A DNA stretch of 64,000 nt from Myxococcaceae bacterium. GTDB lineage: Bacteria > Myxococcota > UBA727 > JABDBI01. The stretch is from contig JAECQY010000001.1 in the NCBI GenBank assembly GCA_016000045.1, positions 169,194 to 233,193 on the forward strand, read 5' to 3'. The notes under the pieces were generated by a model. It ran no database searches. It was given only the letters and a program-made list of their open reading frames with translations, and was not told the origin of the DNA. Within the stretch, counting starts at the first letter, position 1. Each line of letters starts with the position of its first letter. Below are positions 1 through 57,636 of the stretch, in pieces. The translations under genes and the position numbers were made by a program.

Positions 1-504
1 CCCAACACATTCATCTCTCCTATCCCAACAAAGAAGTTTCCGAGACCCTGTTGGAATTTGGCTCCTCTCCTGACAGGCAAAGACTCTATAGCTCCTTGGC
101 AAATACTGGCTGAAGATCTGAAAGGCGCTTTGAGCGCCAACAACTTGGATGATTTTTGTTCTCGCCTCAAACCTTTCTTTGCCGATATCCCCTACGATTT
201 GCCTATTCCCTTAGAACGCTATTACCAAACTGTGTTCTACATGCTGCTCAAATTTATGGGAGCCGAGATTATGACCGAAGAAAGAACCAATATGGGTCGA
301 ATCGACGCGGTTCTCCAGACGCCTACGCACACCTACGTGGTGGAGCTCAAAATGGGCCGATCTGCTCAGGAAGCCTTGCAGCAAATCCGGCAAAAACAAT
401 ACGCTCAAAAATACCAACTCTCAGGCAAATTGGTTACGGCATTAGGGCTAGCATTCGATCCACAAACTAAAAACATTGTAGATCAAGCCTGGCAAGTGCT
501 GTAG
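1..504 (+). CDS. C-terminal fragment (5' end outside the window) of an AAA-ATPase-like family protein; PD-(D/E)XK nuclease domain (PDDEXK_9-like)
   Basis: The reading frame is open from base 1. Motif GRIDAVLQTPTHTYVVELK fits the D...ExK core of PD-(D/E)XK nucleases. Two other members of the same family lie at 23.5-26.7 kb. Confidence 0.6.
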   Translation, partial: PNTFISPIPTKKFPRPCWNLAPLLTGKDSIAPWQILAEDLKGALSANNLDDFCSRLKPFFADIPYDLPIPLERYYQTVFYMLLKFMGAEIMTEERTNMGRIDAVLQTPTHTYVVELKMGRSAQEALQQIRQKQYAQKYQLSGKLVTALGLAFDPQTKNIVDQAWQVL

Positions 505-595
505 CGATTGGCGAAATCGGATGTTTCTGGATGGATCTCCCCTCTCCTGTTGGGAGAGGGTTCCTCGTATGAGAACAGCCCTCCTCGACGTTATC

Positions 596-1094
596 CAGCG
601 GCGCGTCTATTGCAACAGAAGCAGGCATCTGATTTCTTGAAACATACGACTTGGCGATTGCTGTATTTCAGACGACCCCGTGAGGGGTTCAGGTGCCACA
701 GCCCAGCCAGAGGAGGTTGCTGAAAGCAACAGACGCTGGGCTGGGTTGTTGGGGTTATTGGGATTATTTGGATTATGGGTTATCTAGGCCATTTAGGTTA
801 TCCCGACATTTGTTGGCTCGACCACATAGAGAATATGCTCACAAAGGGAGTTGTGATAAAAGCCACGATTGTTTGGACCGATTGGGTGAATCCATCCGAT
901 TGTCTGAATGAATTCGGTTGGTGAGTCCATCCGGTTGTTTCAACCCAGCCCAGCGTCTGTTGCTTTCAGCAACCTCCTCTGGCTGGGCTGTGGCACCTGA
1001 ACCCCTCACGGGGTTGTCTGAAATACAGCGATCGCCAAGTCGTATGTTTCAAGAAATCAGATGCCTGCTCCTGTTGGGAGAGACGCGCTGGGTG
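596..1094. repeat. Large imperfect inverted repeat. Core arms 621-745 and 944-1068 differ at about 2 of 125 positions; a ~197-bp spacer lies between them, with nested hairpins and short direct repeats.
   Basis: The reverse complement of 944-1068 is near-identical to 621-745. The spacer carries direct repeats ggtgaatccatccgattgt and ggtgagtccatccggttgt. There is no transposase ORF; the small ORFs 508-1133 are judged spurious. Confidence 0.7.
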
Positions 1095-1195
1095 ATTTCG
1101 CGATTGCCCTGCGCAAGATACCGGCCCTCTTGAATCCTTGTGAATACGTCGGTACATACCACAAGTCTCAAAATTTATACTGTTTGGAATCGAAA

Positions 1196-2656
1196 ATGAA
1201 ATTATTTCTTTGGGCAATAGTCGGAGTGAGTTGTTTGGGTAGGGCTGAGCCGAAGCCTAATTTTCCCTGTGATTTGCCAATGCTTCGATTCTCCCTTTCA
1301 TCTGTTTCGGAGCAAGCACTCCCAGAACCTGCGATTCCAGCGGTGGTGACCACGGTGACGCAAAATGGGGGTGCTGTATCTTCCGTTGTGAGCGCGATCA
1401 CGGCGGTTGGCCCGACTCAAGTTGCTCAGACGGCTCGCTCTGGATTAAGCCTGGATTTACTCGCTTGCGACGACGGCCTGCCCATGCAGGAAGGTCCGCT
1501 GGATTGGGCAGATAGCCCCACCCAGCTATCTTTGGGTGAGGGTTCGCTTCAGTACCATACTGGAGCTGTTCTGGGGAACTGGGTTTTGATGGTGGGAGCG
1601 GTGGGCGTATGGAGTGGGGTTGCTTACAAGCTAGGTCCTGAGGCGGCGCAGTTTCCCGGGAGTTTGATACTGCCGGCCCTGCTTTTGATAGTTCCCACCG
1701 TGACTTCTTCGTTCACGCTGGCGCGAGATGGGGACAAGTCTTTACAAACAGCCGGCTCGGTCTCGATCCTGGTATCGCTGGCCAGCATCGCTGCGGTTGG
1801 CGTCAAGGTATGCCCTCGGTTTTTTAAGGCGCGCTGGGAAGACTATGAGCATGAATGGGTCGATTTATCCAACGCGCAAAGAGGTTGGGTGGCACGGTAC
1901 GGCGAGTTGTTTGATACCTACGCCGCGGGCCGACAAGGCTATATCGTGGTTGAATTGTTGACTTCGGTAGGCGTGGGGACTCTTAAATCGTATCAGATTT
2001 TAGAACAAAACTGCCAGGAGTTGTTATGGGCAGGCATGGTTGTTTACGATGCTTATGCCATTTCGCAATTGGCTTTGCGTCCCAATCGCAATCGTCATGC
2101 TCAAATTTTTTACAGCGCCATCGCGACACTTCAAGCGACAGCCCTGACCTTGCAAGCCATTGTTTCCGTCTCCGCTTCCGAAGAAACACAAAGCAAAGTG
2201 AAAACCGTGACTCAATCGGTCGTGGTGGTGACAGAGTATATGATGATGATTAAGACCTTGTTTGACATGGGTTTGCGCGTCAAGAGTTGGTACGATCGAT
2301 ACTACCGGCTCCATTCGGTTTCACTTCCGAAGCAGTCTGCTGGGTTGTCCACCCCGCAGCAAAATACGCCGTTGGAGGAGATGCTATCGGTTGCTTTCGT
2401 ACCGCCTTCGCAAGATACGTTGGTGGGTGAAATGCTACCCCTTGCTTGTGTACCGCTTTCGCTGGACTCCTTGGAGCCTATTGTTCCAGAGGCTTTGTCT
2501 CCGAGCGCATCGGTGTCGGGCGAAGAAAATTTGAAAGCGACTTTAGTCAGCGACTTTGGTTTCTTGGTCGAACAGAGCTCTTCAGTGGCTCCTGTGCCCA
2601 AAAGTTTAAATGAGGTCATTGCCGAACTGATGCAACAGGAGAGTGATCTTGAATAA
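1196..2656 (+). CDS. Hypothetical membrane/secreted protein with N-terminal signal peptide and TM segments; Pro/Ser-rich C-terminus containing a ~45-bp internal tandem duplication
   Basis: Long ORF with signal-like start MKLFLWAIVGVSCLG. Hydrophobic segments are present. No family recognised. Its end overlaps the start of the downstream DUF1566 gene. Confidence 0.4.
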   Translation: MKLFLWAIVGVSCLGRAEPKPNFPCDLPMLRFSLSSVSEQALPEPAIPAVVTTVTQNGGAVSSVVSAITAVGPTQVAQTARSGLSLDLLACDDGLPMQEGPLDWADSPTQLSLGEGSLQYHTGAVLGNWVLMVGAVGVWSGVAYKLGPEAAQFPGSLILPALLLIVPTVTSSFTLARDGDKSLQTAGSVSILVSLASIAAVGVKVCPRFFKARWEDYEHEWVDLSNAQRGWVARYGELFDTYAAGRQGYIVVELLTSVGVGTLKSYQILEQNCQELLWAGMVVYDAYAISQLALRPNRNRHAQIFYSAIATLQATALTLQAIVSVSASEETQSKVKTVTQSVVVVTEYMMMIKTLFDMGLRVKSWYDRYYRLHSVSLPKQSAGLSTPQQNTPLEEMLSVAFVPPSQDTLVGEMLPLACVPLSLDSLEPIVPEALSPSASVSGEENLKATLVSDFGFLVEQSSSVAPVPKSLNEVIAELMQQESDLE

Positions 2657-4046
2657 ACAATGGCTGTTTTGTTTGTTGTGGTTGTCCCGTTTTGGGTTGG
2701 CTGGATATTTCAATGTGAGCGAAGTGCAGGACTCCATGGCGAATGAAGCGCTTTTTCAGCTGATTTCGAATCAGACCTGGACTGTGAACCAACAACAAGC
2801 ATTGATGTCGACGGGTCTTCGCGCTCTATTTCAATCGGTTTCGCCGCAAATCAAGTCGATGCCCGATTACACCGGGCAGTTTGTCGCAAATTGTTCGATT
2901 TTTCTGAATCTGCGCATCGAAGGAGTCGCTTGTGACGTGACGTCGGTCTCGACAGCGATGAAGCCGAGCGGTTATGATTTGAACTCGGCCCTTCGCTTGC
3001 CTCTGGAATACGCGACGCAGATCACACAAAGCGACATCATCTTGGTCAATCTTTACGCGGATTGGAGAGGTAAGACGACGGCTTACTCGGAGCAATATAC
3101 GCTTGGTCCATTTGCTCGAATGCGAACTTGTACGTCAACGCTCAGCGTGACGGATTCACCCGAAACCCCAAGCGGTTTGCTGAGTTCGAGTGAGAGCCTC
3201 GAAGAGTCTCAAACAGCCGCCCCGAGTGTGTCCAAACCCTTCAGTCTTAGTCCCAATGTTCTGGTTTCGGATTCTCACAGCATGAGTTCTACGAGTTCTG
3301 GCAGTAGTGCGTCGGTATCACTTTTGGTTTCTTCAAGCGCGAGTTCATCCGGCTGGTTCAGCGAGTCCAAAAGCCTGACCGAAGCCTTATCACTCAGCCA
3401 GAGTTCAAGTATTCAGGTTTCGGACTCTCGCAGCATGAGTTCTACGAGTTCTGGCAGCAGTGTATCAGCATCGCTTTGGGTTTCTTCAAGCGCGAGTTCG
3501 TCGGGTTGGTTCAGCGAGTCTCAAAGCTTGAGCGAAGCCTTATCACCGAGCCAAAGCTTCAGCAAAATCCTTTCGGGGACTTGTAGTCCGAGTGTGTGGG
3601 GCAGTTGCTTGGGCAATTCTACGGGTTTGGCTTATATTTGGTCTGGTAGTGCCATTTATTCAAACCCAACCAATCAAGCATCGCGTTATACGACCCCTGC
3701 GTCCGGGGTTGTAGGAGATAGTTTAACCGGTTTGCAGTGGGAGCAAGCCGCAAGTAGTAGCACGATGACTTGGAGTGCAGCAGGGACCTATTGTGCGGGC
3801 CGTACGACGGGTGGATTGAGCGGCTGGCGTTTGCCAAACGTGGATGAGCTTCAAACTTTAGTGGACTACACCACCTCCAGCCCAAGTATTAACTCGGCCG
3901 CATTTCCCAGTACACCGAGTAACTATTTTTGGACCTCGACCCTCTACCAACCGAACCCAACTTCCGCGTGGCTCGTCTATTTCTTTCGTGGCGACGTCGG
4001 CTTCAGTGATATGAGCAATAATGGCTTTGTCCGTTGCGCGCGTTGA
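2643..4046 (+). CDS. Secreted DUF1566 (Lcl C-terminal domain, C-type-lectin-like fold) protein with Ser-rich linker; candidate DGR variable protein 1
   Basis: C-terminal domain carries the WRLP..EL motif and the ...FWTST...VRCAR terminus typical of DUF1566. An N-terminal module is shared with the ORFs at 52139 and 54905. The gene lies 27 bp upstream of a DGR-type RT. Confidence 0.7.
   Translation: MILNKQWLFCLLWLSRFGLAGYFNVSEVQDSMANEALFQLISNQTWTVNQQQALMSTGLRALFQSVSPQIKSMPDYTGQFVANCSIFLNLRIEGVACDVTSVSTAMKPSGYDLNSALRLPLEYATQITQSDIILVNLYADWRGKTTAYSEQYTLGPFARMRTCTSTLSVTDSPETPSGLLSSSESLEESQTAAPSVSKPFSLSPNVLVSDSHSMSSTSSGSSASVSLLVSSSASSSGWFSESKSLTEALSLSQSSSIQVSDSRSMSSTSSGSSVSASLWVSSSASSSGWFSESQSLSEALSPSQSFSKILSGTCSPSVWGSCLGNSTGLAYIWSGSAIYSNPTNQASRYTTPASGVVGDSLTGLQWEQAASSSTMTWSAAGTYCAGRTTGGLSGWRLPNVDELQTLVDYTTSSPSINSAAFPSTPSNYFWTSTLYQPNPTSAWLVYFFRGDVGFSDMSNNGFVRCAR
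3264..3570 (+). repeat. Tandem duplication, 2 x 153 bp (51 aa), encoding a Ser-rich linker inside the DUF1566 gene
   Basis: Two near-identical units start with gtttcggaytctcrcagcatgagttctacgagttctggcag. In protein they read SMSSTSSGSS...SSSGWFSES. Confidence 0.75.
3921..4046 (+). other. Candidate DGR variable region VR-A (3' end of the DUF1566 gene)
   Basis: Compared with the paralogous segment 5951-6076, differences fall in codon positions 1-2 with the third base kept in 15 of 18 differing codons. Upstream of the block, differences between the two genes are ordinary synonymous drift. Confidence 0.55.
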
Positions 4047-4073
4047 GGATGGGAGAATGAACAGGATGGGACT

Positions 4074-5621
4074 GTGAAAAAAGGTTGGCCAACTTGGGAA
4101 AGCGTCGATCGAGCTGCGGCTGCTTGCGCCAAGCGCAAGCGAAGCAGACCCGATGCGATTGTTTTTCGGGCCCGCTACACAGAAGAGGTGCTGGACTTGT
4201 GCCAGCGCATTCGATCGGGAGAATACCGGCCCTCCTCGGGGACGGTTTTCGTGACCGATCGCCCAAAGACTCGTGAAATACACGCCTCTCATTATCGAGA
4301 TCGAGTGGTTCACCACCTGCTCCATGACCTGATTGAACCGCACTTTGAACAATCGTTTATTAAAGATTCGTACGCTTGTCGTAAAGGCAAAGGTTCTCAT
4401 GCTGCGGTAGAAGCCTTGCAAAAACACATGCAGCGAGCGACCTGTTATGGCAAAATACGTGCTTATGCCCTGCATCTCGATATTAGAAGTTTTTTCTTCT
4501 CCATTCATAAACCCACCTTGCTGGCTATTTTGGAGTCGAAGCAATGGTTTCGTGAGCAGGCGGAATTGCGGCATTTGACCACTTTGGTGATCAATCACCC
4601 CACTGCGCTGCATGCGAAGCCCTTGGGGCCACCAAGCTCGTTTGAACGAATTCCTCCGTTGAAGCGGCTTGGAGCTTTGGGGGAGGATCGAGGACTCCCC
4701 ATCGGCAATCTGACCAGCCAGTTGTTTGCGAATATCTACTTGGATGTCTTGGACCAGATGATCAAGCGTACTTTAGGGGCTCAATATTACGTCCGGTATT
4801 CAGATGATCTGGTCTTGTTGCACCGCGATGCGGATCAGCTCGCGAGCTGGAAGCAACAAATCATCGAGTTTTTGCAGCAAAGGCTAAAACTGGAGACGCA
4901 TGAGAAAGCGCCAATTCATCCGGTGAGCGAAGGTGTCGATTTTGTCGGGTATGTCATTCGTCCTGCTTACAAATTGTGCCGTGCACGCGTGATTCGGCAC
5001 GCTCACCAACGTATTACCGAGCTCGAAAAACCGCTACACCCTGAAGAACGAGAAGGTTATCAGTTCTGGCGAGTACGTCACAAGGACATCGAGGCTTTGC
5101 GTGCTTGTTGGGCAAGTTATGCGGGTCATTTGAAACATGCCAGTGCTTATCGAGTGGCTCAAAAGTTGCTCAAGCGGCACCCTATCTCTCAATTCTATTT
5201 GCGCTTTGAGATTGCGAAGCATGGAATTTCTGTGGCTCGGCGATTTGCTTTGCCTAAGATTGAGTCTTGTTGGAATCACCAAATCCATTCGTTGCATCAG
5301 AGCGTCTCGAAACCAGCGCTCCGATCGGCAGAGGGTTCTGCGGTGTTGTTGGTTCAAGTGGGTCGTTATGCCGAGTGTCCTTTGCAGAAGGATGCAGAGC
5401 GTTTGGAACTTCGTCGGGGCTTACCGTGGCGTCGCTTGCCTGAGATCATCGACCGAGCGGTTCAAAAGGGTCTGAAAGTGGCAGTGGCTGTTGAGTTTAA
5501 AAAATGCACAGGGCGTATTAGAGCTCGTTATTTGGCGTACTGGGTAGAACCCGTGGCGCGGCCGGTACTGCTTTCTGAAGGTTCTCCCAAGGCTGTGCAG
5601 TTGGAATTCGGGTTTTCATGA
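4074..5621 (+). CDS. Reverse transcriptase, diversity-generating retroelement (DGR) type
   Basis: RT motifs are present in order: RPKTREI, RDRVVHHLL, YACRKGKGSHAAV, LHLDIRSFF, LPIGNLTSQLFANIYLD (the IGxxxSQ substitution typical of DGR RTs), YVRYSDDLVLL and GVDFVGYVI. There is a ~200-aa C-terminal extension. The stop overlaps the next start (ATGA). Confidence 0.85.
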   Translation: MKKGWPTWESVDRAAAACAKRKRSRPDAIVFRARYTEEVLDLCQRIRSGEYRPSSGTVFVTDRPKTREIHASHYRDRVVHHLLHDLIEPHFEQSFIKDSYACRKGKGSHAAVEALQKHMQRATCYGKIRAYALHLDIRSFFFSIHKPTLLAILESKQWFREQAELRHLTTLVINHPTALHAKPLGPPSSFERIPPLKRLGALGEDRGLPIGNLTSQLFANIYLDVLDQMIKRTLGAQYYVRYSDDLVLLHRDADQLASWKQQIIEFLQQRLKLETHEKAPIHPVSEGVDFVGYVIRPAYKLCRARVIRHAHQRITELEKPLHPEEREGYQFWRVRHKDIEALRACWASYAGHLKHASAYRVAQKLLKRHPISQFYLRFEIAKHGISVARRFALPKIESCWNHQIHSLHQSVSKPALRSAEGSAVLLVQVGRYAECPLQKDAERLELRRGLPWRRLPEIIDRAVQKGLKVAVAVEFKKCTGRIRARYLAYWVEPVARPVLLSEGSPKAVQLEFGFS

Positions 5622-6076
5622 AATTTGCACTAGGTTGCCGAATCGCTTTACTCTTGAATATTGGCTTGCTCGCTTGGCCCTTGCTGGCCATTTGTCGTTA
5701 TACCAATGAAAATGGAGCAGCTCTGACCCCGAGTGATCAGACCGTTCGAGACAGCGTGACAGGGCTAGTCTGGCAAAGAACTCAAGCTGCTTCGACCATG
5801 TCTCAAACGTCTGCAGCCAGTTACTGCGCGTCTTTGAATCTCAATGGCTTTTCATTCCGTTTACCGACGGTTCGTGAATTGTCCAGCCTCGTGGACTTCA
5901 ATACCTCCAGTCCCAGCATTGACTCAACGGCTTTTCCGGGAACCTCTTCTAACTATTTTTGGACCTCGACTACTTACCAACCGATCCCAACTTACGCGTG
6001 GGTCGTCGATTTCTATGGTGGCTTCGTCGACTTCAATGCTATGGGCGGTGATAACTCTGTCCGTTGCGCGCGCTGA
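5618..6076 (+). CDS. Small secreted/lipoprotein-like protein consisting of a single DUF1566 domain; candidate DGR variable protein 2
   Basis: Signal peptide MKFALGCRIALLLNIGLLAWPLLAIC, then a DUF1566 domain (FRLPTVRELSSL...FWTST...VRCAR). The start is translationally coupled to the RT stop. Confidence 0.65.
   Translation: MKFALGCRIALLLNIGLLAWPLLAICRYTNENGAALTPSDQTVRDSVTGLVWQRTQAASTMSQTSAASYCASLNLNGFSFRLPTVRELSSLVDFNTSSPSIDSTAFPGTSSNYFWTSTTYQPIPTYAWVVDFYGGFVDFNAMGGDNSVRCAR
5951..6076 (+). other. Candidate DGR variable region VR-B
   Basis: See VR-A. It shares the invariant flanks aactatttttggacctcgac and gtccgttgcgcgcgYtgaggatggga. Confidence 0.5.
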
Positions 6077-6185
6077 GGATGGGATGTTGACCCTTTGCCT
6101 CTTCGACCTTTTAAAAAGGAAACGGAAGACAAGGGGGGCGAGACAAGCTCATGATGGACGATACTCTCTGCCAATCGCTTGTCGT

Positions 6186-7142
6186 TTAAGGCAATTGAGC
6201 CGGGTCAATTAATCCAGCTTCGAGCTGCTCAATTTGCTCTCGCGGTAACTCGGTGGCGGTTGCGATAACAGACTTATCGAGCCCCAACTTTAAGAGTTTC
6301 ACCGCTGTTTCTACCTTGGCCTCTGCTTTGCCTTTCTCCAATCCGATAGCTTTGCCTCTTTCGAGTCCGACGGCCTCTCCTTCTGCTTGCCCCTGCGCCC
6401 GTCCTTTTGCTTCAGCGCAGAGATAGTAGTCTTGTTCTGAGACGCTTTGTTTGAGGTAGCGCCAATACTCGTTGCGTTCGGCATCGGTCATCTTGAGGAC
6501 TTGAAGGCGTTCAGCCACTTTGTCCATGCCTTTGGACTGAAAGTCTGCTCGGATTTGTTCGTTTTTGGCCATGTAAAGCCACTCATCGATTTCGCTTTGC
6601 ACTTCATCGTTAAATTTTGGAATGCAAATGAAAAAATATTCTGGAAACACATTGTAGATATCCAAGTTTTTCGAAGCGCGAGTGGACAGATGCAGCGATA
6701 CCGGGTTTTGGGTGTCTATTTCATGAATAATCGTTTGCCCAAAGGCCAAGGCGTGGTTCATCTGAGGGACTTCAAAATACAACAAGCTGATGTGAAAGAC
6801 TTTCTTAATCTGGGTAAAATCTTGACCTAACTCGAGACTGTCGATGATTCTGCGGGAAGTGTTAAAACAGGCTTTATGAGCAAAGTGGGTGGTATAAGAA
6901 CGTTCAATCTCAACCATGTATTTGACACCATTGGCGTCTTCTACCACCAAGTCTGCGATGCTTCGTTTTTGATTTTTGGCTTCTTTCTGGCTTTCTGGAT
7001 CGATTAAGGCCTTAATCTTAACGGGTGGGTAACCCTCGGTGGCTAAAAGAGCGGATAAGAAACTTTCAATAATGTCATAATCGGCCTGGTTTTTGAGCAG
7101 GTACTTAATGGCATAATCGAAACTGACTAAGGGCTTCTCCAT
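6186..7142 (-). CDS. Rpn/PDDEXK_2-family PD-(D/E)XK nuclease (recombination-promoting nuclease / putative transposase family)
   Basis: Motif DLVVEDANGVKYMVEIE fits the nuclease core. The C-terminal charged repeat region (AEAKGRAQGQAEGEA...) is typical of this family. Confidence 0.55.
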   Translation of the reverse strand: MEKPLVSFDYAIKYLLKNQADYDIIESFLSALLATEGYPPVKIKALIDPESQKEAKNQKRSIADLVVEDANGVKYMVEIERSYTTHFAHKACFNTSRRIIDSLELGQDFTQIKKVFHISLLYFEVPQMNHALAFGQTIIHEIDTQNPVSLHLSTRASKNLDIYNVFPEYFFICIPKFNDEVQSEIDEWLYMAKNEQIRADFQSKGMDKVAERLQVLKMTDAERNEYWRYLKQSVSEQDYYLCAEAKGRAQGQAEGEAVGLERGKAIGLEKGKAEAKVETAVKLLKLGLDKSVIATATELPREQIEQLEAGLIDPAQLP

Positions 7143-7204
7143 AGGTACTGTATAGCATATTCCGGGATTGAACTCAAGATGAGGAGCTTTTGTGAAACCC
7201 AGGC

Positions 7205-9982
7205 CTAGCCGTTTTTTAAGCGATTGAGGCTGTCGGAGATCTGGCCTTCGCGTTCTGCTAAGAGCGACTGCTGTTTGCGATATTGCTCTAGAATCTCGAC
7301 TGGCGCTTTCGCAATAAAGCCTGGGCTTTGAAGCCGCTGTTCGAGACCTTTTCGCTCTTGAGTGATTTTCTCAAGCTCTTTTTGAAGCCGACGGGTTTCG
7401 GTCGCTAAATCGAGCAAGCCTTCCAGGGGAAGCACGATATCGTAGAGGCCATTCGTGTGAGTGGCCGCAAAGCGAGGAGTCGTGTAGTCTTGCCTTGTTC
7501 GGAAATCGACCGAATCCAAAAGAGCCAAGCGAAGCAGAGCTTCTTTTTGCTCGGCCAAGAAGTCCAAGTCGGCTGATTGCTCTGCTAGAATCACGGCTGA
7601 AAGACGCTTTTGAGCGGGCAAGTTCGATTCTTGTCTGGCGTTTCGAATCATGCCAATGACTTCTTGCAATTGAGCAAAGCTTTTTTCAGCCGCTGGGTCG
7701 AGATAAGCTCGATTGGCAACCGGAAATGAGGCAAAAGAACAAGTCCCTTCGGTGCCAGGCAAATGAGACCAAATTTCTTCGGAGACAAAGGGACAAAAAG
7801 GGTGCAAGAGCCGGACGCTGGTGGAGACCAGCTCAACCAAGATCGAACGAACGGCGGGAGAATCCATGCGAATCTTCGCAAGCTCGATGTACCAGTCGCA
7901 GACCTCGGTCCAGAAGAATTGATAAAGCGCATCGGAAGCGACGCTGAATTCGTAATGAGACAGGCTTTTGTCCACTTGCTCGATGACCTGTTGAAGGCGC
8001 GATAAAATAAAACGGTCTTCCAGCATGAAGAGCTCTTGGACTTGCGTGAGGGGCAGAATCGGCTCTGGGCCGATGCGCATGAGCACAAAGCGGGTGGCGT
8101 TCCAGACTTTATTCAAAAAGGCTCGATACCCAGAAACTCGAGGAATGGCGAGTTTGACATCTTGGCCTTGGCCCGACAGCATCGCCAGGCTAAGACGTAG
8201 ACCGTCTGCACCGGAGGCAGGAATTCCGTCTGGGTAATCTTTTTTAAGGCCTTCTAAAACGTGATTGAGCATTTTAGGAGGAACCGGGTAATTTTTGGTT
8301 TTGACCAACAAGTCTTCCAGAGAAATCCCTTCGATGACATCGATGGGGTCGATGGCATTGCCCAGAGATTTCGACATTTTTCGGCCGTGAGCGTCTCGTA
8401 CCATGGCATGCAAATAGATATCCCGAAACGGAACTTGCCCCATAAAATGCAAGCCAAACATCATCATGCGGGCCACCCAAAAGAAAAGAATGTCAAACCC
8501 CGTTTCCAGCACGCTGGTGGGGTAGAAGGTTTTCAGGTCGCTGGTTTCATGAGGCCAACCGAGTGTTGAGAACGGCCACAAAGCGGAAGAAAACCACGTA
8601 TCCAAGACGTCTTCTTCTTGGCGATAGCGCTCTGGGCCAAATTTTTTGACGAGATCCTCACGGCTCGCGACGGAAATTTCACGCATTTCAGCATCGCTTA
8701 AGGAGTTCAAATCTCGATCCCCAAGCTTTTGCAGGTCGTAATAGACCGGAATGGGGTGTCCCCACCAAAGTTGACGCGAAATGCACCAATCTTGGATGTT
8801 CAAGAGAAAATGGTCGTAGGTTTTTTTCCAGCTTGCAGGCAAAATCCGAGTTTCGCCATTCTCAACCGCTTGATAGGCTTTTTGAGCCATCGAGTCCATG
8901 CGAATAAAGTATTGTTTGCTGAGCATGGGCTCAATATCTTCCCCAGAACGTGAGGATACCGAGACTTTGTGTTCGATGCTTTGAGCCCCTCGAACAAGAC
9001 CCAACGCTTCTAAATCTTTTTTAATTTGGCTGCGCGCTTCTTGCCGAGTGAGGCCTTGGTAGGAACCTCCTTGATGGTTCACCTTGCCGTCTCGTGTGAA
9101 AATCGATATTTCCGCTAAACCATGGCGTTTCCCTGCGGCGTAGTCGTTTGGATCGTGCGCAGGCGTCATTTTGACCGCTCCGGTTCCAAAATCCACGTCA
9201 ACCAGAGTGTCCGCGATGATCGGAATCACGCGGGATTCGAAAAACGGATGCCTGACCTGACGGCCTTGCAAATGTTTGTATCGAGGGTCGTCTGGATGAA
9301 CCGCAATGGCGGTGTCGCCCAGCATGGTTTCGGGTCGGGTGGTTGCGACAACGATTTCTTCTTCGAGGCCGATGATTGGATAGGCAAAATGGAACAGCTC
9401 TCCTGTGCGGGCCACGTGCTCGACTTCTTCGTCGCTGAGCGCTGTCTGAGAACCCGGATCCCAGTTCACCAGGCGCTCTCCTCGGTAGATGAGGCCCTCG
9501 TCCCAAAGTCGCACAAAGGCTTCGTTAACGGCTTCGCAGAGTTCGGGATCCAGCGTGAATTTATGCCGGTTCCAATCCGCGGAAGCCCCCAACTGCTTCA
9601 TTTGGTGAACAATGGTTTTGCCGTTTTGGTCAACCCATTGCCAAATTTTTTTCACAAATTCAGGACGACCGATTTCGTGGCGGGTTTTGCCTTCTTGTTT
9701 GAAGACTTCGCGCTCAACGACCGTTTGCGTCGCGATGCCCGCATGATCGGTTCCTGGGAGCCAAAGGGTCTTTCGCCCTTTCATGCGATGATAACGTACC
9801 AAAATATCTTGCAGTGTCACGAAAAGCGCATGCCCATTGTGAAGAACGCCTGTCACGTTGGGAGGCGGCATCATGACGGTGTAAGGCACACCGGTTTTTT
9901 CATCGGGTGAAAAGAAACCGGGCTTGTCAAAGAGTGCGCGCCATTTTAGCTCAAGGGTCTTTGCGTCGTATTTCGGATCCAT
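7205..9982 (-). CDS. valS: Valyl-tRNA synthetase
   Basis: HIGH-like PPPNVTGVLHNGHAL and KMSKS motifs are present. Length is 925 aa with a C-terminal coiled coil. Confidence 0.95.
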   Translation of the reverse strand: MDPKYDAKTLELKWRALFDKPGFFSPDEKTGVPYTVMMPPPNVTGVLHNGHALFVTLQDILVRYHRMKGRKTLWLPGTDHAGIATQTVVEREVFKQEGKTRHEIGRPEFVKKIWQWVDQNGKTIVHQMKQLGASADWNRHKFTLDPELCEAVNEAFVRLWDEGLIYRGERLVNWDPGSQTALSDEEVEHVARTGELFHFAYPIIGLEEEIVVATTRPETMLGDTAIAVHPDDPRYKHLQGRQVRHPFFESRVIPIIADTLVDVDFGTGAVKMTPAHDPNDYAAGKRHGLAEISIFTRDGKVNHQGGSYQGLTRQEARSQIKKDLEALGLVRGAQSIEHKVSVSSRSGEDIEPMLSKQYFIRMDSMAQKAYQAVENGETRILPASWKKTYDHFLLNIQDWCISRQLWWGHPIPVYYDLQKLGDRDLNSLSDAEMREISVASREDLVKKFGPERYRQEEDVLDTWFSSALWPFSTLGWPHETSDLKTFYPTSVLETGFDILFFWVARMMMFGLHFMGQVPFRDIYLHAMVRDAHGRKMSKSLGNAIDPIDVIEGISLEDLLVKTKNYPVPPKMLNHVLEGLKKDYPDGIPASGADGLRLSLAMLSGQGQDVKLAIPRVSGYRAFLNKVWNATRFVLMRIGPEPILPLTQVQELFMLEDRFILSRLQQVIEQVDKSLSHYEFSVASDALYQFFWTEVCDWYIELAKIRMDSPAVRSILVELVSTSVRLLHPFCPFVSEEIWSHLPGTEGTCSFASFPVANRAYLDPAAEKSFAQLQEVIGMIRNARQESNLPAQKRLSAVILAEQSADLDFLAEQKEALLRLALLDSVDFRTRQDYTTPRFAATHTNGLYDIVLPLEGLLDLATETRRLQKELEKITQERKGLEQRLQSPGFIAKAPVEILEQYRKQQSLLAEREGQISDSLNRLKNG

Positions 9983-11885: not shown

Positions 11886-12088
11886 CTTGCTACGTTGGCT
11901 GCGCGCCTCTTCGAAATCGTAGATGTCAGGTAACTGCATAAAGAATAGAAGTGTAGCACACGAGGCTGTAGCTCAAATTATCCAAACGTAGGAGATAGCA
12001 AGCTTGAATGAGTGCCGAAGGCGATAGCTGCTTTCGGCCTGAACTAGAAAGCGATTTCATTCTTTGGGTGGATCATGTTTTGATTTTC

Positions 12089-12180
12089 TTAGCAATAAGC
12101 TCCAAAGTTTACGAAAGTAATTTAGAAGCTCATTTATTACAGTGCGTCTAAACGCCATAATTTATTTTGGCGGGCATCGC
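12089..12180. repeat. Intergenic repeat family A, copy 1 (~92 nt)
   Basis: About 85% identical to 57477-57570: gcaataagctccaaagtttacgRaagtaatt...gcgtctaaacgccataatttattttgRcggg. Confidence 0.6.
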
Positions 12181-52138: not shown

Positions 52139-54502
52139 TTGCGAATGGCGATTAAGAAAAATCTAAAAACCCAAGCACGGTGCTTTAGGCAAGCAAAGCT
52201 GCTGGTATTCTTAATTTGGGGACAAACCGCTGTTGCTGCCTGGCTTAATCAAAGCCAGGTAACGAATGCCGTGGCGAATCAGGCACTAACCCAGCTTGTT
52301 TCGAACCAGACATTGCCTGCCGCCCAGCAAAAACAATGGTTCTCGACCGGATTGAAGGCCTTGTTTGCCGAGCTAACTCCGGCGATTCAAGCGATGCCAG
52401 ATTATACGGGCCAGTTTGTAGCCAATTGTTCCATTTTCATGAACACTCACATCGAGCAGGTTTTGTGCGAGATCAACTCCACGACTGCTTTGGTGAGACC
52501 CGAGAGTTGCGGACAGAGTTCCTTACTTCCTTTGGAATATGAGCATCAAATTACCGAAAGCGCGATTTTGCTGGTGAGTTTTTACGCTGATTGGACGCGT
52601 AAGACGTCGTTATCCTCCGAATCTTATGCCGTTCGTTTGTTCGATCGGATGCCAACGTGCACCGCGTCTGCGAGCGTTTCAGAGACAGGGCCAATACTCA
52701 GCCAAACCTTGAGCCCTACTGAGTCTACCTCTTTGAATTTTACGATAAGCCCAAGTGCTCCTGTGGTTTGGAACCCCGAGTGGGCAAATTGGCAGATAAC
52801 GACCGGTGTCTATCAAGACAACGCCAATCAAACGGGCCGCTACCTTGAATCGGTTCCAGGAGTTATCACGGATCAAATGACGGGTTTGCAGTGGCAAAAA
52901 GTAGGGAGTGCGCCTGCGGGTAATTGGACGGCTGCGCAGGCCTATTGCGCTAATTTGTTTGAGTCTGGGTTTGGGGATTGGCGTTTGCCCGCGCACGTGG
53001 AACTTCAGACTTTGGTGGATTATACGATGGATTGCGCTGGTCCCAGCGTGGATCTGAATTTTTTCCCAGGCGCTCAAACCAGCAGTTACTATTGGTCCTC
53101 GGACGCTTTACAGGGTTACCCTGGCAGTGCTTGGTGGGTGAGCTACGGTAGTAGTGGTGCCTATTACGCAGGCCTCGTTTGCAGCCAGGGTTATGGTGCT
53201 TGTTCTTCAGTGCCTGCGAGCGGCTTTGCCCGTTGTGTGCGACCCTCGTTGGCAGATCGAGAGATAGATCGTTACACCTTTAATAGCACGCAGGTTCTGG
53301 ACACCGTAACGGGCTTGATTTGGCAGCGAACGGTTTCTGGAACTTATAACTGGGGTGCAGCGCAGGCTTATTGTGCGGGTTTGAATCTGGACGGTTTGAT
53401 CTGGCGTCTTCCGAATGTTAAAGAGTTATCGACGCTTCTGGATGTTCGCATAGCATCTCCGGGTCCGACGATCAATACGACGGCTTTTCCGAGTACACCT
53501 CAGGCTGGGTTTTGGACATCAACGCCTTGTTCGTGTGCGTCTTCATCCGTCGCGTGGCTGGTCGATTTCATCTATGGTTCTGTGTCCTACACTGGCATGG
53601 GCACTTTTGACTATGTTCGTTGTGTGCGCTCTCCTCAGGTTTACAATCCCGAGTGGGCGAATTGGCAAGTGACAACGGGCGTCTATCGAGACAACGCTAA
53701 TCAAACGGGCCGCTACCTTGAATCGGTTCCAGGAGTTATCACGGATCAAATGACGGGTTTGCAGTGGCAGAAAGTAGTGAGTGCGCCTGCTGGCAATTGG
53801 ACGGCTGCGCAAGCCTATTGTGCTAATTTGTTTGAGTCTGGGTTTGGAGACTGGCGCTTGCCCACGCACGTAGAACTTCAGACTTTGGTGGATTATACGA
53901 TCAGTTGCACTGGTCCCAGCGTGGATCAGGATTTTTTCCCAGGTACTCAAACCAGCAGTTACTATTGGTCCTCCGACGCTTTGCAGGGTTACCCTGGAAG
54001 TGCTTGGTGGGTGAGTTACGGCACCGGTGCCTATTACGCGGGCCTTGTTTGCAGCCAGGGCTATGGCGTCGCTTGTCCTTCGGTGCCCGCGAGCGGTTTT
54101 GCCCGTTGTGTGCGACCTTCGTCGGCAGAACGAGAGGAGGATCGTTATGCCTTCAACAGCACCCAGGTGCTGGACACCGTGACGGGCTTAATTTGGCAAC
54201 GGATGGTTTCCGGAACTTACAGCTGGAGTGCAGCGCAGGCTTATTGTACGGGTTTAAATCTGGACGGTTTGAGCTGGCGCCTTCCGAATGTCAAAGAGCT
54301 ATCGACGCTTCTGGATGTTCGCATGGCATCTCCGGGTCCGACGATCAATACGACGGCTTTTCCGAGTACACCGCAGGGCGGCTTTTGGACATCAACGCTT
54401 TATACGTGTTCCTCATCCAACGCCTGGGCGGTCTTTTTCGATAATGGCTACGTCGCCTTCAATGATATGAGCTCTTCTTACTGTGTCCGTTGCGCGCGTT
54501 GA
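52139..54502 (+). CDS. Large secreted protein with shared N-terminal module and four DUF1566 domains in two ~874-bp tandem units; candidate multi-VR DGR target
   Basis: Four WRLP..EL motifs. Units 52763-53636 and 53637-54502 are near-identical except at the tips of domains 2 and 4 (FWTST...VRCVR/VRCAR). Confidence 0.65.
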   Translation: MRMAIKKNLKTQARCFRQAKLLVFLIWGQTAVAAWLNQSQVTNAVANQALTQLVSNQTLPAAQQKQWFSTGLKALFAELTPAIQAMPDYTGQFVANCSIFMNTHIEQVLCEINSTTALVRPESCGQSSLLPLEYEHQITESAILLVSFYADWTRKTSLSSESYAVRLFDRMPTCTASASVSETGPILSQTLSPTESTSLNFTISPSAPVVWNPEWANWQITTGVYQDNANQTGRYLESVPGVITDQMTGLQWQKVGSAPAGNWTAAQAYCANLFESGFGDWRLPAHVELQTLVDYTMDCAGPSVDLNFFPGAQTSSYYWSSDALQGYPGSAWWVSYGSSGAYYAGLVCSQGYGACSSVPASGFARCVRPSLADREIDRYTFNSTQVLDTVTGLIWQRTVSGTYNWGAAQAYCAGLNLDGLIWRLPNVKELSTLLDVRIASPGPTINTTAFPSTPQAGFWTSTPCSCASSSVAWLVDFIYGSVSYTGMGTFDYVRCVRSPQVYNPEWANWQVTTGVYRDNANQTGRYLESVPGVITDQMTGLQWQKVVSAPAGNWTAAQAYCANLFESGFGDWRLPTHVELQTLVDYTISCTGPSVDQDFFPGTQTSSYYWSSDALQGYPGSAWWVSYGTGAYYAGLVCSQGYGVACPSVPASGFARCVRPSSAEREEDRYAFNSTQVLDTVTGLIWQRMVSGTYSWSAAQAYCTGLNLDGLSWRLPNVKELSTLLDVRMASPGPTINTTAFPSTPQGGFWTSTLYTCSSSNAWAVFFDNGYVAFNDMSSSYCVRCAR

Positions 54503-54540
54503 GGATGGGATGTTGATCCTTTGACTTTTGACCTTTTAAT

Positions 54541-54607
54541 AAAGAAAATGGAAGGCAGTAGGGCCCGAAATAGGCACTGGCTCGTTAGCTTCTGGGAAAG
54601 ATACGTT
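54541..54607. repeat. Intergenic repeat family B, copy 1 (~67 nt), downstream of a DUF1566 gene
   Basis: aaagaaaaYggaaggcagYagggYYcgaaataggcWctg...agcttSTgggaaagatacgtt. Second copy at 57570-57636; partial match at 6106-6125. Confidence 0.55.
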
Positions 54608-54904: not shown

Positions 54905-57445
54905 ATGAATCGGTATTTGTGCTCCTGGCTGTTATTGCTGTCTTTACCGGTTCAAGCGGGTTTTGTGCTTCGAGAAGGCTTCTCCGAAGTTCTGAGTCAA
55001 CAGTTTTCAAATCTGACGCAGCTTAAGAATCAAACGAGCTCTTTATCCAAAGAGCTTGTGACACAAAATGCCATGAGGGGATTATGGTCTCTCATTGGGC
55101 CTCATCTTCAAGCCTTACCGGGTTGTTGTAAGAAGCCTTTTAGCTCAAATTGCTCTGTGTTTTTCGATGCCGAAATTGATGAGGTTGTGTGTGATGCGCA
55201 ATTTGAAGAGGTTCAAGCAATTTCGACATCTTGCGAAGCCGAGCAACGGTTTCCAGTGGGTTATTTGGCGCAGTTACACAAGAGCAATATTCTCCAGACG
55301 CGCATTGTCGTGGGTCTGGCGCCTGTGCAACATCCGCAGGTGATGTATTGGTTGTATGATAAATTGCCACCGACGCTTTCACAATCTGTGACACAATCAA
55401 ATTCCATGAGTGGCCGCAACACTCAAACCGGCACAGATTCCGCAAGCCCGATGAATAGCACCACGGATTCTGTTGGCCCAACGAGTAGTTTTACAGAGAG
55501 TTTATTGTCGAGCAGGAGCGTGTCGTTTAGCTCAACTGCCACTGAATCATTGACTCCAAGCCATTCGGTTGCAACAGAATCGGCTAATCTGTCGCATTCT
55601 TTGAGTGGGAGCACTGTTCCGTGCACGAGCGAGAGCTTGTCTCATTCTCAAACTTTGAGTTCTACCCAGTACCCATCGTTCAGTTCAAGCCTGAGTCCCA
55701 GTGCTCCCGTGGTTTGGAACCCTGAGTGGGCGGATTGGCAAGTGACAACGGGTGTTTATCGAGATAATGCCAATCAAACGGGCCGCTATTTTGAATCCGT
55801 TCCGGGGGTTATCACGGATCAGATGACGGGTTTGCAGTGGCAAAAGGTAGGGAGTGCATCTGCGGGCAATTGGATTGCTGCCCAGGCCTATTGCACAGAT
55901 TTGTTTGAGTCTGGGTTTGGAGACTGGCGTTTGCCCACGCACGTGGAACTTCAGACCTTGGTGGATTATACGATCAGTTGCGCTGGGCCCAGTGTGGATC
56001 TGGGTTTTTTCCCAGGCACGCAAACCAGCAGTTACTATTGGTCCTCCGACGCTTTGCAGGGTTACCCTGGGAGTGCTTGGTGGGTAAGTTACGGCAGCGG
56101 TGCTTATTACGCGGGTCTCGTTTGCAGTCAGGGCTATAGCGGTTGTTCTTCAGCGCCTGCGAGCGGCTTTGCCCGTTGTGTGCGATCCTCATCGGCGGTT
56201 CGAGAGGTGAATCGTTATGCCTTTAATAGCACCCAGGTACTGGACACGGTGACGGGCTTGATTTGGCAACGAACGGTTTCCGGAACTTACAACTGGGGTG
56301 CGGCGCAAGCTTATTGTGCGGGTTTGAATCTGGATGGTTTGAGCTGGCGCCTTCCGAATGTCAAAGAATTATCGACGCTTCTGGATGTTCGTGTGGCATA
56401 CCCGGGTCCAACGATCAATACGACGGTTTTTCCGAGTACACCGCAGAGCGGCTTTTGGACCTCAACGCCTTATTCGTGTGTGTCTTCATCTAACGCGTGG
56501 TTGGTTGGTTTTGACTGTGGTTACGTCATCTTCAATGGTTTGAGCCCTGCTGGCTATGTTCGTTGTGTGCGCTCTCCTCAGGTTTACAATCCCGAGTGGG
56601 CAAATTGGCAAGTGACAACCGGTGTCTATCAAGACAGCGCCAATCAAACGGGCCGCTACCTTGAATCGGTTCCAGGAGTTATCACGGATCAAATGACGGG
56701 TTTGCAGTGGCAAAAAGTAGAAAGTGCGCCTGCAGGCAATTGGACGGCTGCGCAGGCTTATTGTGCTAATTTGTTTGAGTCTGGGTTTGGAGACTGGCGT
56801 TTGCCCACGCACGTGGAACTTCAGACCTTGGCGGATTATACGATCAGTTGCGCTGGGCCGAGTGTGGATCCGGACTTTTTCCCAGGCACTCAAACCAGCA
56901 GTTACTATTGGTCCTCAGACGCTTTGCAGGGTTACCCTGGCAGTGCCTGGTGGGTGAGTTATGGGAGCGGTGCCTATTACGCAGGCCTCGTTTGCAGCCA
57001 GGGTTATGGTGGTTGTACTTCAGTGCCTGCGAGCGGCTTTACGCGTTGTGTGCGACCCTCGTCGGCGGTTCGAGAGGTAGATCGTTATACCTTTAATAGC
57101 ACACAAGTTCTGGACACCGTAACGGGCTTGATCTGGCAACGAACGGTTTCAGGGAATTACAACTGGGGTGCAGCGCAAGCTTATTGTGCGGGTTTAAACC
57201 TCGACGGTTTGAGCTGGCGTCTTCCCAATGTCAAAGAATTGTCAACGCTTCTGGATGTTCACGTGGCATACCCGGGTCCGACTATCAACACGACGGTTTT
57301 TCCAGGCACGCCTCAGGCCTGGTTTTGGACATCAACGCCTTATTCGTGCGCGTCCCCGTCCGGTGCGTGGGGCGTGGATTTCGGTAATGGCGGCGTCTTC
57401 ACGGTTAGCATCAGCAATACTTACTATGTTCGGTGCGTGCGTTGA
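54905..57445 (+). CDS. Large secreted protein with Ser/Thr-rich linker and four DUF1566 domains in two ~867-bp tandem units; candidate multi-VR DGR target
   Basis: Signal peptide MNRYLCSWLLLLSLPVQAG. Units about 55718-56584 and 56585-57445. Hypervariable tips on domains 2 and 4. Confidence 0.65.
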   Translation: MNRYLCSWLLLLSLPVQAGFVLREGFSEVLSQQFSNLTQLKNQTSSLSKELVTQNAMRGLWSLIGPHLQALPGCCKKPFSSNCSVFFDAEIDEVVCDAQFEEVQAISTSCEAEQRFPVGYLAQLHKSNILQTRIVVGLAPVQHPQVMYWLYDKLPPTLSQSVTQSNSMSGRNTQTGTDSASPMNSTTDSVGPTSSFTESLLSSRSVSFSSTATESLTPSHSVATESANLSHSLSGSTVPCTSESLSHSQTLSSTQYPSFSSSLSPSAPVVWNPEWADWQVTTGVYRDNANQTGRYFESVPGVITDQMTGLQWQKVGSASAGNWIAAQAYCTDLFESGFGDWRLPTHVELQTLVDYTISCAGPSVDLGFFPGTQTSSYYWSSDALQGYPGSAWWVSYGSGAYYAGLVCSQGYSGCSSAPASGFARCVRSSSAVREVNRYAFNSTQVLDTVTGLIWQRTVSGTYNWGAAQAYCAGLNLDGLSWRLPNVKELSTLLDVRVAYPGPTINTTVFPSTPQSGFWTSTPYSCVSSSNAWLVGFDCGYVIFNGLSPAGYVRCVRSPQVYNPEWANWQVTTGVYQDSANQTGRYLESVPGVITDQMTGLQWQKVESAPAGNWTAAQAYCANLFESGFGDWRLPTHVELQTLADYTISCAGPSVDPDFFPGTQTSSYYWSSDALQGYPGSAWWVSYGSGAYYAGLVCSQGYGGCTSVPASGFTRCVRPSSAVREVDRYTFNSTQVLDTVTGLIWQRTVSGNYNWGAAQAYCAGLNLDGLSWRLPNVKELSTLLDVHVAYPGPTINTTVFPGTPQAWFWTSTPYSCASPSGAWGVDFGNGGVFTVSISNTYYVRCVR

Positions 57446-57476
57446 AGACGGGATTTTTACTTTTTATTTTTATAAA

Positions 57477-57570
57477 ATTGGCAATAAGCTCCAAAGTTTA
57501 CGGAAGTAATTGAGAACCCAATTCATGACAGCGCGTCTAAACGCCATAATTTATTTTGACGGGAACCGAA
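57477..57570. repeat. Intergenic repeat family A, copy 2
   Basis: See 12089-12180. Confidence 0.6.
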
Positions 57571-57636
57571 AAGAAAACGGAAGGCAGCAGGGTTCGAAAT
57601 AGGCTCTGAGGCGGCAGCTTGTGGGAAAGATACGTT
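57570..57636. repeat. Intergenic repeat family B, copy 2
   Basis: See 54541-54607. Confidence 0.55.

Follow-up and report, generated by a model that had tools for sequence, protein, structure and literature searches.

Diversity-generating retroelements (DGRs) recode the ligand-binding face of a surface protein with a C-type-lectin fold: the accessory protein Avd and a reverse transcriptase (RT) copy the RNA of a template repeat (TR) into cDNA with misincorporation opposite template adenines, and this cDNA replaces the variable repeat (VR) at the 3' end of the target gene. Here we describe a locus in a 64-kb stretch of a Myxococcaceae metagenome-assembled genome (MAG), referred to below as the window, in which a DGR-type RT gene (RT1) is packed between two target genes of the DUF1566 (Lcl_C) family. 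The locus is most likely the remnant of a DUF1566/CLec2-targeting DGR of the type carrying a MutS-domain-I-related (MSL) module, and sequence comparison suggests that recombination between the upstream VR and the TR would have removed both template and avd.

Among the described systems, the Legionella pneumophila DGR resembles this locus in that its VR lies in the C-terminus of a surface protein with a DUF1566-type C-type-lectin fold, and in having a MutS-like accessory module and a DGR-clade RT. Its target LdtA is the example given for target category 'd' (DUF1566 with CLec2 VRs; architecture D) by Wu et al. 2018 (PMC5758913), and DUF1566 is thereby an established scaffold of DGR variation, as an earlier note on this DNA had claimed. 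LdtA is a surface lipoprotein, and the second target of the window (target 2) could possibly be one, given the conserved Cys that closes its signal peptide. In the MSL-containing DGRs of Wu et al. (PMC5758913), Legionella among them, MSL is a separate, stand-alone accessory gene of 112-283 aa, whereas in the window it is fused to the C-terminus of the RT; three DGR RTs with such a MutS_I-like extension were already reported there, and a MutS-domain-I-related module on a DGR RT is an already known feature. These MSL-containing DGRs also have avd, whereas the window has neither avd nor TR. [quoted passage not shown] By contrast, its RT (bRT, 328 aa) has no MutS-like domain, and a GC-rich inverted repeat follows its initiation-of-mutagenic-homing (IMH) sequence, whereas in the window no hairpin or cruciform fold after the VRs was better than those of shuffled sequences (z -0.97 to +1.1). 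BPP-1 also requires the two components that the window lacks, and inactivating bRT, Avd or TR in the reconstituted system each lowers activity to about 1e-9 (PMC12875486).

RT1 lies on a 249-kb contig of run SRR9332771, and the cassette is composed of the following parts.

1061..2656, + strand: conserved membrane-protein gene, 531 aa; true start possibly the Met at 1196; 14-nt overlap with the start of target gene 1
2643..4046, + strand: target gene 1, with signal peptide, N-terminal domain, Ser-rich linker and C-terminal Lcl_C/DUF1566 domain (C-type-lectin fold; Pfam PF07603)
3920..4054, + strand: VR1, occupying the TR slot; VR end of target 1 joined to a TR-type 3' flank; direct repeat with 5950-6084
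4047..4073, + strand: 27-bp spacer from TR slot to RT start, bearing the TR-specific flank GGATGGGAGAATGA
4074..5621, + strand: DGR reverse transcriptase RT1, 515 aa, GTG start; RT domain roughly aa 1-330
5262..5552, + strand: C-terminal MutS-domain-I-related (MSL) domain of RT1, from a profile of 15 homologous C-termini
5618..6076, + strand: target gene 2, 152 aa, single Lcl_C domain, signal peptide ending in a conserved Cys
5950..6084, + strand: VR2, with VR-type 3' flank
6077..6110, + strand: T-rich array after VR2, repeats of ~8-9 nt (GTTGACC CTTTGCCT CTTCGACC TTTT)

The variable end of the upstream target sits in the slot where a TR is expected, which argues for a deletion rather than a design. 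The ancestral cassette would have had the order membrane protein, large Lcl_C target with its VR, avd, TR, RT-MSL and small Lcl_C target with its VR, as in the closest relatives and in the second DGR of this genome. The upstream VR and the TR would then have formed direct repeats, which are about 700 bp apart in relatives, and would have recombined within their shared 26-bp 3' end (4029-4054). Such a crossover would have deleted avd together with the whole mutagenic adenine-rich part of the TR, that is, nearly all of the TR, leaving target gene 1 fused to the TR 3' flank at a distance of 27 bp from the RT. The VR-specific bases end at 4027 (TTT; TAT in the TRs of relatives and in the predicted TR1 described below) and the first TR-flank-specific base is at 4055, which would place the exchange within the 26-bp identity. 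What remains would be an intact RT-MSL gene with two adjacent VRs and one remote VR in which adenine mutagenesis is frozen. With no template and no Avd, this copy alone should no longer diversify anything. On this sequence evidence we consider it likely that template and Avd were lost and that the VRs are frozen.

The TR slot of related loci carries much of this argument. Closest to RT1 is the RT of locus L092 (Ga0105050_10133065; 65% identity), recovered by an alignment-based metagenome scan, an earlier scan with RT1 peptides having given nothing; it is followed by L005 (GCA_037134495.1) and L006 (GCA_037134615.1) with 62%, L010 with 61%, L002 with 50% and L007 with 48%, and L011 is the orthologue of L002. 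In all of these loci the ~115 nt before the RT start are an adenine-rich TR. A TR is kept in each of the nine relatives examined, including the closest ones, and avd stands before it wherever the contig extends that far; because of this retention, the loss of avd and TR appears to be specific to the lineage of the window. In the six loci for which it was measured, the TR slot holds 29-32% A and 10-15 AAY, compared with 17% A and 5 AAY in the window, where it consists of the in-frame, A-poor 3' end of target 1 followed by the TR-type flank GGGAGAATGA. All TRs of the six measured loci end in GATGGG, in most cases followed by GAGAA, and L092 has the same layout. The flank found in the window spacer also follows the TRs of L005, L006, L010 and L092, whereas VR2, VR3 (the remote VR) and the VR of locus L009 run on with GGGATGTTGAC instead. 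VR1 is colinear with the TR of L002 (TR2) and with the TRs of L005, L006, L010, L011, L007 and L092, and the alignment of the window with L002 is colinear across TR2 and RT.

Synteny extends to both sides of this slot. The gene pair of the 531-aa membrane protein and target 1 matches the pair that precedes Avd-TR-RT in L005, with 49% identity of the membrane protein to a 503-aa protein and 40% identity of the N-terminal domain of target 1 to the L005 target; the membrane protein matched nothing in Pfam or NCBIfam, and an unannotated protein of similar size likewise precedes the target gene in L007. Avd was found in L002, L003, L005, L007, L011, L027 (Sulfurovum MAG CACVAS010000147.1), L092 and L096. 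The order in L005 is Avd (6102-6500), TR (6652-6775) and RT, and L092, with Avd at 79-471, reads VR end, Avd, TR, RT. On the other side, an RT followed by a small target also occurs in L002, L009, L027, L015, L017 and L018, and the target 2 orthologue of L009 stands directly after an RT-MSL C-terminus. The orthologous Myxococcaceae DGRs (L092, L005/L006, L010) are like the window in their RT-MSL protein, GTG AAA AAA start, GATGGGAGAATGA spacer before the RT and upstream pair of membrane-protein and Lcl_C-target genes. By contrast, their target and RT are separated by Avd (about 130 aa) and an adenine-rich TR, and about 90% of the mismatches in their TR/VR pairs are adenine-specific; none of this is seen in the window. 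The L005/L006 cassette lies among phage-tail-like genes, whereas that of the window is chromosomal, beside valS. The earlier note had taken target-RT-target without Avd or TR as a distinct architecture; this view is not supported, as an RT with a small target is usual in the group and relatives including L092 and L005 have avd and TR.

Some further features of these relatives were observed. Genes of phage-tail or contractile-injection type (Dit-like, Pam3_gp18, E217_gp41 baseplate, sheath initiator) occupy L005 91-899 and 8370-9087 and L006 3331-5304, and one VR of L005 has an in-frame TGA from a non-adenine G-to-A change. L027 is laid out as target, Avd, TR slot, RT and small target, with repeat copies at 4022-4162, 4700-4840 and 6354-6492; neither VR shows adenine-biased mismatches to the copy in the TR slot, and all three copies look VR-like. 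A similar pair without adenine bias occurs in L071 (4164-4372 and 4738-4946). Both loci may reflect VR-to-TR gene conversion or self-homing as a second route to template loss.

The variable repeats keep a record of past mutagenesis. The C-termini of targets 1 and 2 lie in direct repeats of 194 nt (3861-4054 and 5891-6084; 78% identity). Upstream of 3920, 11 of 19 differences between VR1 and VR2 are at third codon positions; from 3941 on, by contrast, 20 of 23 are at codon position 1 or 2, a pattern typical of DGRs that supports the earlier note in reading both as variable-protein genes. The window thus has the variable repeat at the 3' end of a C-type-lectin-fold target gene, with variation at codon positions 1 and 2, that marks a DGR. 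Two further target genes lie about 50 kb downstream.

52139..54502, + strand: remote target gene, 787 aa, four Lcl_C domains (Pfam), with VR3 (54422-54510) at its 3' end
54905..57445, + strand: target gene, 846 aa, four Lcl_C domains, with VR4 (57351-57453) at its 3' end

Among VR1-3, 24 of 81 columns are variable (9, 12 and 3 at codon positions 1, 2 and 3), spanning 3941-4028 in VR1, 5971-6058 in VR2 and 54428-54484 in VR3. Twenty of these 24 columns fall on adenines of the paralogous TR2, compared with 7 of the 57 invariant columns (Fisher p 1.3e-9). From TGG onward VR3 departs from VR1 and VR2 at shared variable columns only; the GTCCGTTGCGCGCG end is exact in all three VRs, and the VR2 3' flank GGGATGTTGACCCTTTGCC is common to VR3 and the L009 VR. 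VR1, VR2 and VR3 all have GGATGGGA and diverge only after it, the corresponding position in relatives being GGAT in the TR and GGAC in the VR. These comparisons indicate that VR1-3 bear the fingerprint, now fossil, of adenine mutagenesis from a shared template, and they assign VR3 to the template family of VR1 and VR2. The template is predicted to encode the peptide ...W(I/N)VNFNNGNVDFNDMSNNNYVRCAR, and the predicted TR1 would read ...TGG ATC GTC AAT TTC AAT AAT GGC AAC GTC GAC TTC AAT GAT ATG AGC AAT AAT AAC TAT GTC CGT TGC GCG CG. Two other sources of template were considered and rejected: with VR1, VR2 or VR3 as template of the others, only 4-7 of 19 mismatches fall on putative-TR adenines in every ordered pair, and TR2 shows 67-70% identity to VR1-3 with many non-adenine differences.

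The earlier note had taken invariance of the DUF1566 C-termini across strains or read populations as counting against its DGR reading. No VR variants were found, the two MAG assemblies and one Logan contig being identical; this is weak evidence, as all three come from the same or sister samples. The target proteins form single-member clusters at 90% under two accession series, and a homologue search with target 2 gave 9 matches, none of them a VR-only variant.

The region 54350-54510 around VR3 looks chimeric: its 5' part is like the paralogous TR2-type domain, as in VR4, and the ~85 nt from GCCTGG on match the VR1/VR2 template family and its 3' flank, as though a TR1-derived cDNA had overwritten just the 3' part of a paralogue. 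Between the second, internal Lcl_C domains of both four-domain proteins (53470-53628 and 56415-56571), most differences in the VR-equivalent segment are likewise at the first two codon positions, and this segment runs into coding sequence and not into an IMH flank; these segments are probably duplicated former VRs.

A template was sought throughout the window. No TR was found in the 64 kb by word-7 blastn with VR1-3 on both strands, whole-window repeat finding, motif searches or an AAY-density scan, and no repeat with near adenine-only mismatches to a VR of this DGR is present there. The only AAY-rich stretch, at ~740-870 on the minus strand, was discarded as a TR candidate, being an ATAACC-type simple repeat in the loop of an inverted repeat with no VR similarity. 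The Avd profile gave a best E of 1.6 against the six-frame translation of the whole window, and neither avd nor a separate TR is present between target 1 and RT1, in agreement with the earlier note. The window thus lacks an Avd beside TR and RT, which 74% of DGRs and every close relative in this comparison have. When the Avd profile was searched against 5.8 billion proteins, the best 120 Avd-family proteins included only one that is attributed to this MAG, namely Avd2, the Avd of a second DGR described below. P0143 and P0144, the Logan candidates that came nearest to a cognate Avd1, were set aside because they come from other runs.

The identity of RT1 (deposited as MBH2005894.1 and MBH1988893.1) is clear from several lines of comparison. 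It carries IGNLTSQ at aa 210-216 (4701-4721) and YSDD at aa 242-245 (4797-4808), and matches Pfam RVT_1 with E 8e-15. Its best match in the PDB is Bordetella bRT (8ub7, E 7e-35), compared with 5.8e-11 for a group II RT and weaker values for retron-type RTs; the alignment with 8ub7 spans fingers, palm and thumb, with IGSLTSQLFANVY facing IGNLTSQLFANIY. The NCBIfam matches all remain below threshold, with 107 bits against a cut-off of 300 for the group II model TIGR04416, 53 against 200 for Drt3a and 50 against 235 for retron St85, and no Rfam family, group II intron or other, was matched in window 1-7300 at E <= 0.1. Homologues of RT1 adjoin bAvd genes and A-biased TR/VR pairs. A simple script found such a pair in 46 of 80 related genome loci, with the TR upstream of the RT in 44 of the 46, usually by 9-175 nt. 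The MAG-annotated relatives are Myxococcaceae, and those examined bear A-biased TR/VR pairs. RT1 keeps all residues invariant across 8 clade members in a full-length open reading frame (ORF), and its orthologues start at the same GTG AAA AAA codons. Taken together, these comparisons assign RT1 to the DGR clade, as the earlier note had read from the IGNLTSQ motif, rather than to retron, Abi or group II intron RTs.

At its C-terminus RT1 extends ~190 aa beyond bRT. Fifteen homologous RT C-termini, RT1 included, give a profile that matches residues 15-116 of Taq MutS (1ewq) with E 2.6e-13, and 9 of the 15 individually match Pfam MutS_I (PF01624). In a Pfam scan the C-terminus of RT1 alone gave no MutS_I match and the family profile was needed; the RT1 domain reads GRYAE at the position of MutS GxFYE.

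The flanking targets and their junctions with RT1 likewise agree with the earlier note. Both are DUF1566 proteins (Pfam Lcl_C, E 1.4e-31 for target 1 and 9.2e-30 for target 2). The RT starts at GTG 4074, 27 bp after the target 1 stop (4044-4046), and the RT stop (TGA, 5619-5621) overlaps the ATG of target 2 at 5618 in an ATGA. Target 1 (MBH2005893.1) has 467 aa from a GTG at 2643, or 465 aa from the NCBI and Logan start at 2649, and its Ser-rich linker contains a 153-nt tandem duplication with 84% identity (3241-3546). The AF2 model of the target 2 domain was poor with a 6-sequence alignment (pLDDT 55) and was superseded by one from an 18-sequence domain alignment (pLDDT 92).

The same MAG holds a second DGR. 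Logan contig SRR9332771_47513 (L002), from the same run as the RT1 contig, carries a complete DGR with the order VR end, Avd2, TR2 (617-714), RT2 (731-2239) and small Lcl_C target. RT2 (MBH2006910.1) lies about 1,000 accessions from RT1 and is 50% identical to it. The design is like that of the window, with paralogous targets and the small target starting at the RT stop, and the VR end stands immediately upstream of avd; this DGR differs in being complete, and TR2 is not the template of VR1-3. All 12 mismatches between TR2 and its own VR are at TR adenines. Against window 57351-57448, the end of the 846-aa protein, TR2 has 16 adenine mismatches and 1 other in 98 nt, and this match identifies VR4 as templated in trans, across contigs, by the second DGR, so that the window contains a trans target of another, intact DGR.

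Several points weigh against the view that RT1 has lost its template and Avd and that its VRs are frozen. The RT-MSL is full length with all clade-invariant residues kept and no decay seen, as would be expected if the deletion were very recent or the gene still in use. The crossover interval depends on a TR1 that is predicted rather than observed, and the comparison of VRs covered assembled sequences. A displaced avd-TR1 may lie elsewhere in the MAG, the TR search having covered the 64 kb, and Avd2 could act in trans. Moreover, 26% of catalogued DGRs have no avd (Wu 2018, PMC5758913), so that independence of Avd exists in principle.

These points converge on the alternative that fares best, namely an unconventional DGR that still works, either with the 3' end of target 1 as a coding TR for VR2 and VR3, served by Avd2 in trans or by no Avd, or with a TR elsewhere in the genome. 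The TR-type 3' flank and spacer are still beside the intact RT, VR1 retains some adenines, including AAC and AAT AAT, and Avd2 is present in the same MAG; besides the quarter of DGRs without avd, remote targets are known to be served in trans (Wu 2018, PMC5758913). However, 12-14 of the 19 mismatches of VR2 and VR3 to VR1 are at non-adenine positions, indicating that no homing from VR1 is recorded in them, and the separate A-rich TR of all nine relatives, with avd wherever the contig reaches, means that the arrangement of the window is not conserved. Neither a TR1-like sequence within the 64 kb nor an Avd1-like protein of this sample among the best 120 Avd-family proteins was found, and we regard a working element as unlikely. 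In its most specific form, 3920-4054 with its TR priming flank would be a self-encoded coding template, whose RNA is copied by RT-MSL to rewrite downstream or remote paralogues with Avd from the second DGR or without any. If true, this would be a DGR with neither a dedicated TR nor a cognate avd; we hold the chance of such a functional fusion to be slim.

It is comparably improbable that the junction is an assembly error, in which the 3' end common to the target 1 VR and the TR led the assembler from one to the other, past a genuine avd-TR segment. Near-identical direct repeats such as VR and TR are well known to collapse in assembly, and repeats also break the Logan contigs L001 and L002. However, the k=31 Logan contig L001, recorded in two samples, is identical to window 1040-6963 and has the same junction, and NCBI has the three junction genes in two accession series. 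Given that the predicted VR/TR identity at the junction (26-27 nt) is shorter than k=31, k-mers from the VR-specific T at 4027 to the TR-flank G at 4055 must exist in the reads; again, the best 120 Avd-family proteins include no Avd1-like protein of this sample. That RT1 is no DGR enzyme at all, but a retron, Abi/DRT or group II intron RT standing among lectin-like genes by chance, can be dismissed almost entirely, since its NCBI label ('group II intron reverse transcriptase domain-containing protein') and sub-threshold NCBIfam matches to group II RT, Drt3a and retron St85 are opposed by scores far under every cut-off, a lead of 24 orders of magnitude in E-value for bRT as the best solved homologue, the IGxxxSQ motif, homologues adjoining Avd and A-biased TR/VR pairs, and the lack of any Rfam RNA family in 1-7300. 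Loss of template and Avd by a VR-TR crossover, an event that we infer together with its place and the present inactivity of the locus, remains the reading that we prefer.

Other features surround the cassette and its targets. T-rich units of ~8 nt in 3-6 copies (TTTGAC, TTTGGT or TTTAAC) stand right after the end of TR/VR homology in many of the 52 related VRs examined (L003-L091). The mean periodicity score downstream of these VRs is 0.535, compared with 0.404 for background, and 24 of the 52 lie above the 95th percentile of the background, 0.528 (Mann-Whitney p 1.5e-21). Such arrays lie at 6077-6110, 54503-54535 and 57446-57470 in the window, which are weak examples (VR2 0.47, below the percentile, VR3 0.56 and VR4 0.50), and also at L039 4224-4275 and L005 6045-6085. 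Wu 2018 (PMC5758913) reported GC-rich inverted repeats in 34% of DGRs and described no T-rich array. The array may function in target-side recognition.

Just upstream of the operon lies a 148-nt inverted repeat (601-748 and 941-1088, 96% complementary) whose 192-nt loop contains the ATAACC-type simple repeats. L001 begins at 1040, within the second arm, for which reason the inverted repeat may be a multi-copy element resembling a miniature inverted-repeat transposable element (MITE). A 102-nt element occurs in copies of 83% identity at 12078-12179 and 57467-57568. The latter copy is placed between the VR4 T-rich repeats and a block AAAGAAAAYGGAAGGCAG... (57570-57636) that also follows VR3 (54541-54607) and, in a looser version, VR2, and the element has the look of a small insertion in DNA that is conserved behind VRs. 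The cassette is directly followed by a gene of the Rpn family of PD-(D/E)XK proteins (recombination-promoting nuclease/putative transposase; 6186-7142, minus strand), inside which L001 ends, and a PDDEXK_9 gene fragment stands at the window start (58-504, plus strand). A promoter and terminator scan of 400-7300 gave counts like those of shuffled sequences.

DGR surveys routinely set aside RTs without a detectable TR/VR pair as incomplete or unexplained. The locus belongs to the already known DUF1566/CLec2-targeting DGRs with an MSL module, apparently degraded by a deletion, and it gives one such TR-less orphan RT an explanation at the sequence level, in which a single VR-TR crossover would remove avd and template and freeze the variable proteins. 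VR-TR recombination may be a general route of DGR death, and L027, in which avd is retained, hints at a form by gene conversion without crossover. In one Myxococcaceae genome, two DGRs share one family of lectin-like surface proteins, and one of them targets in trans a gene that lies roughly 50 kb away from the RT of the other. The accepted view of how DGRs work is unchanged; the locus is of value for annotation and for the natural history of these elements.

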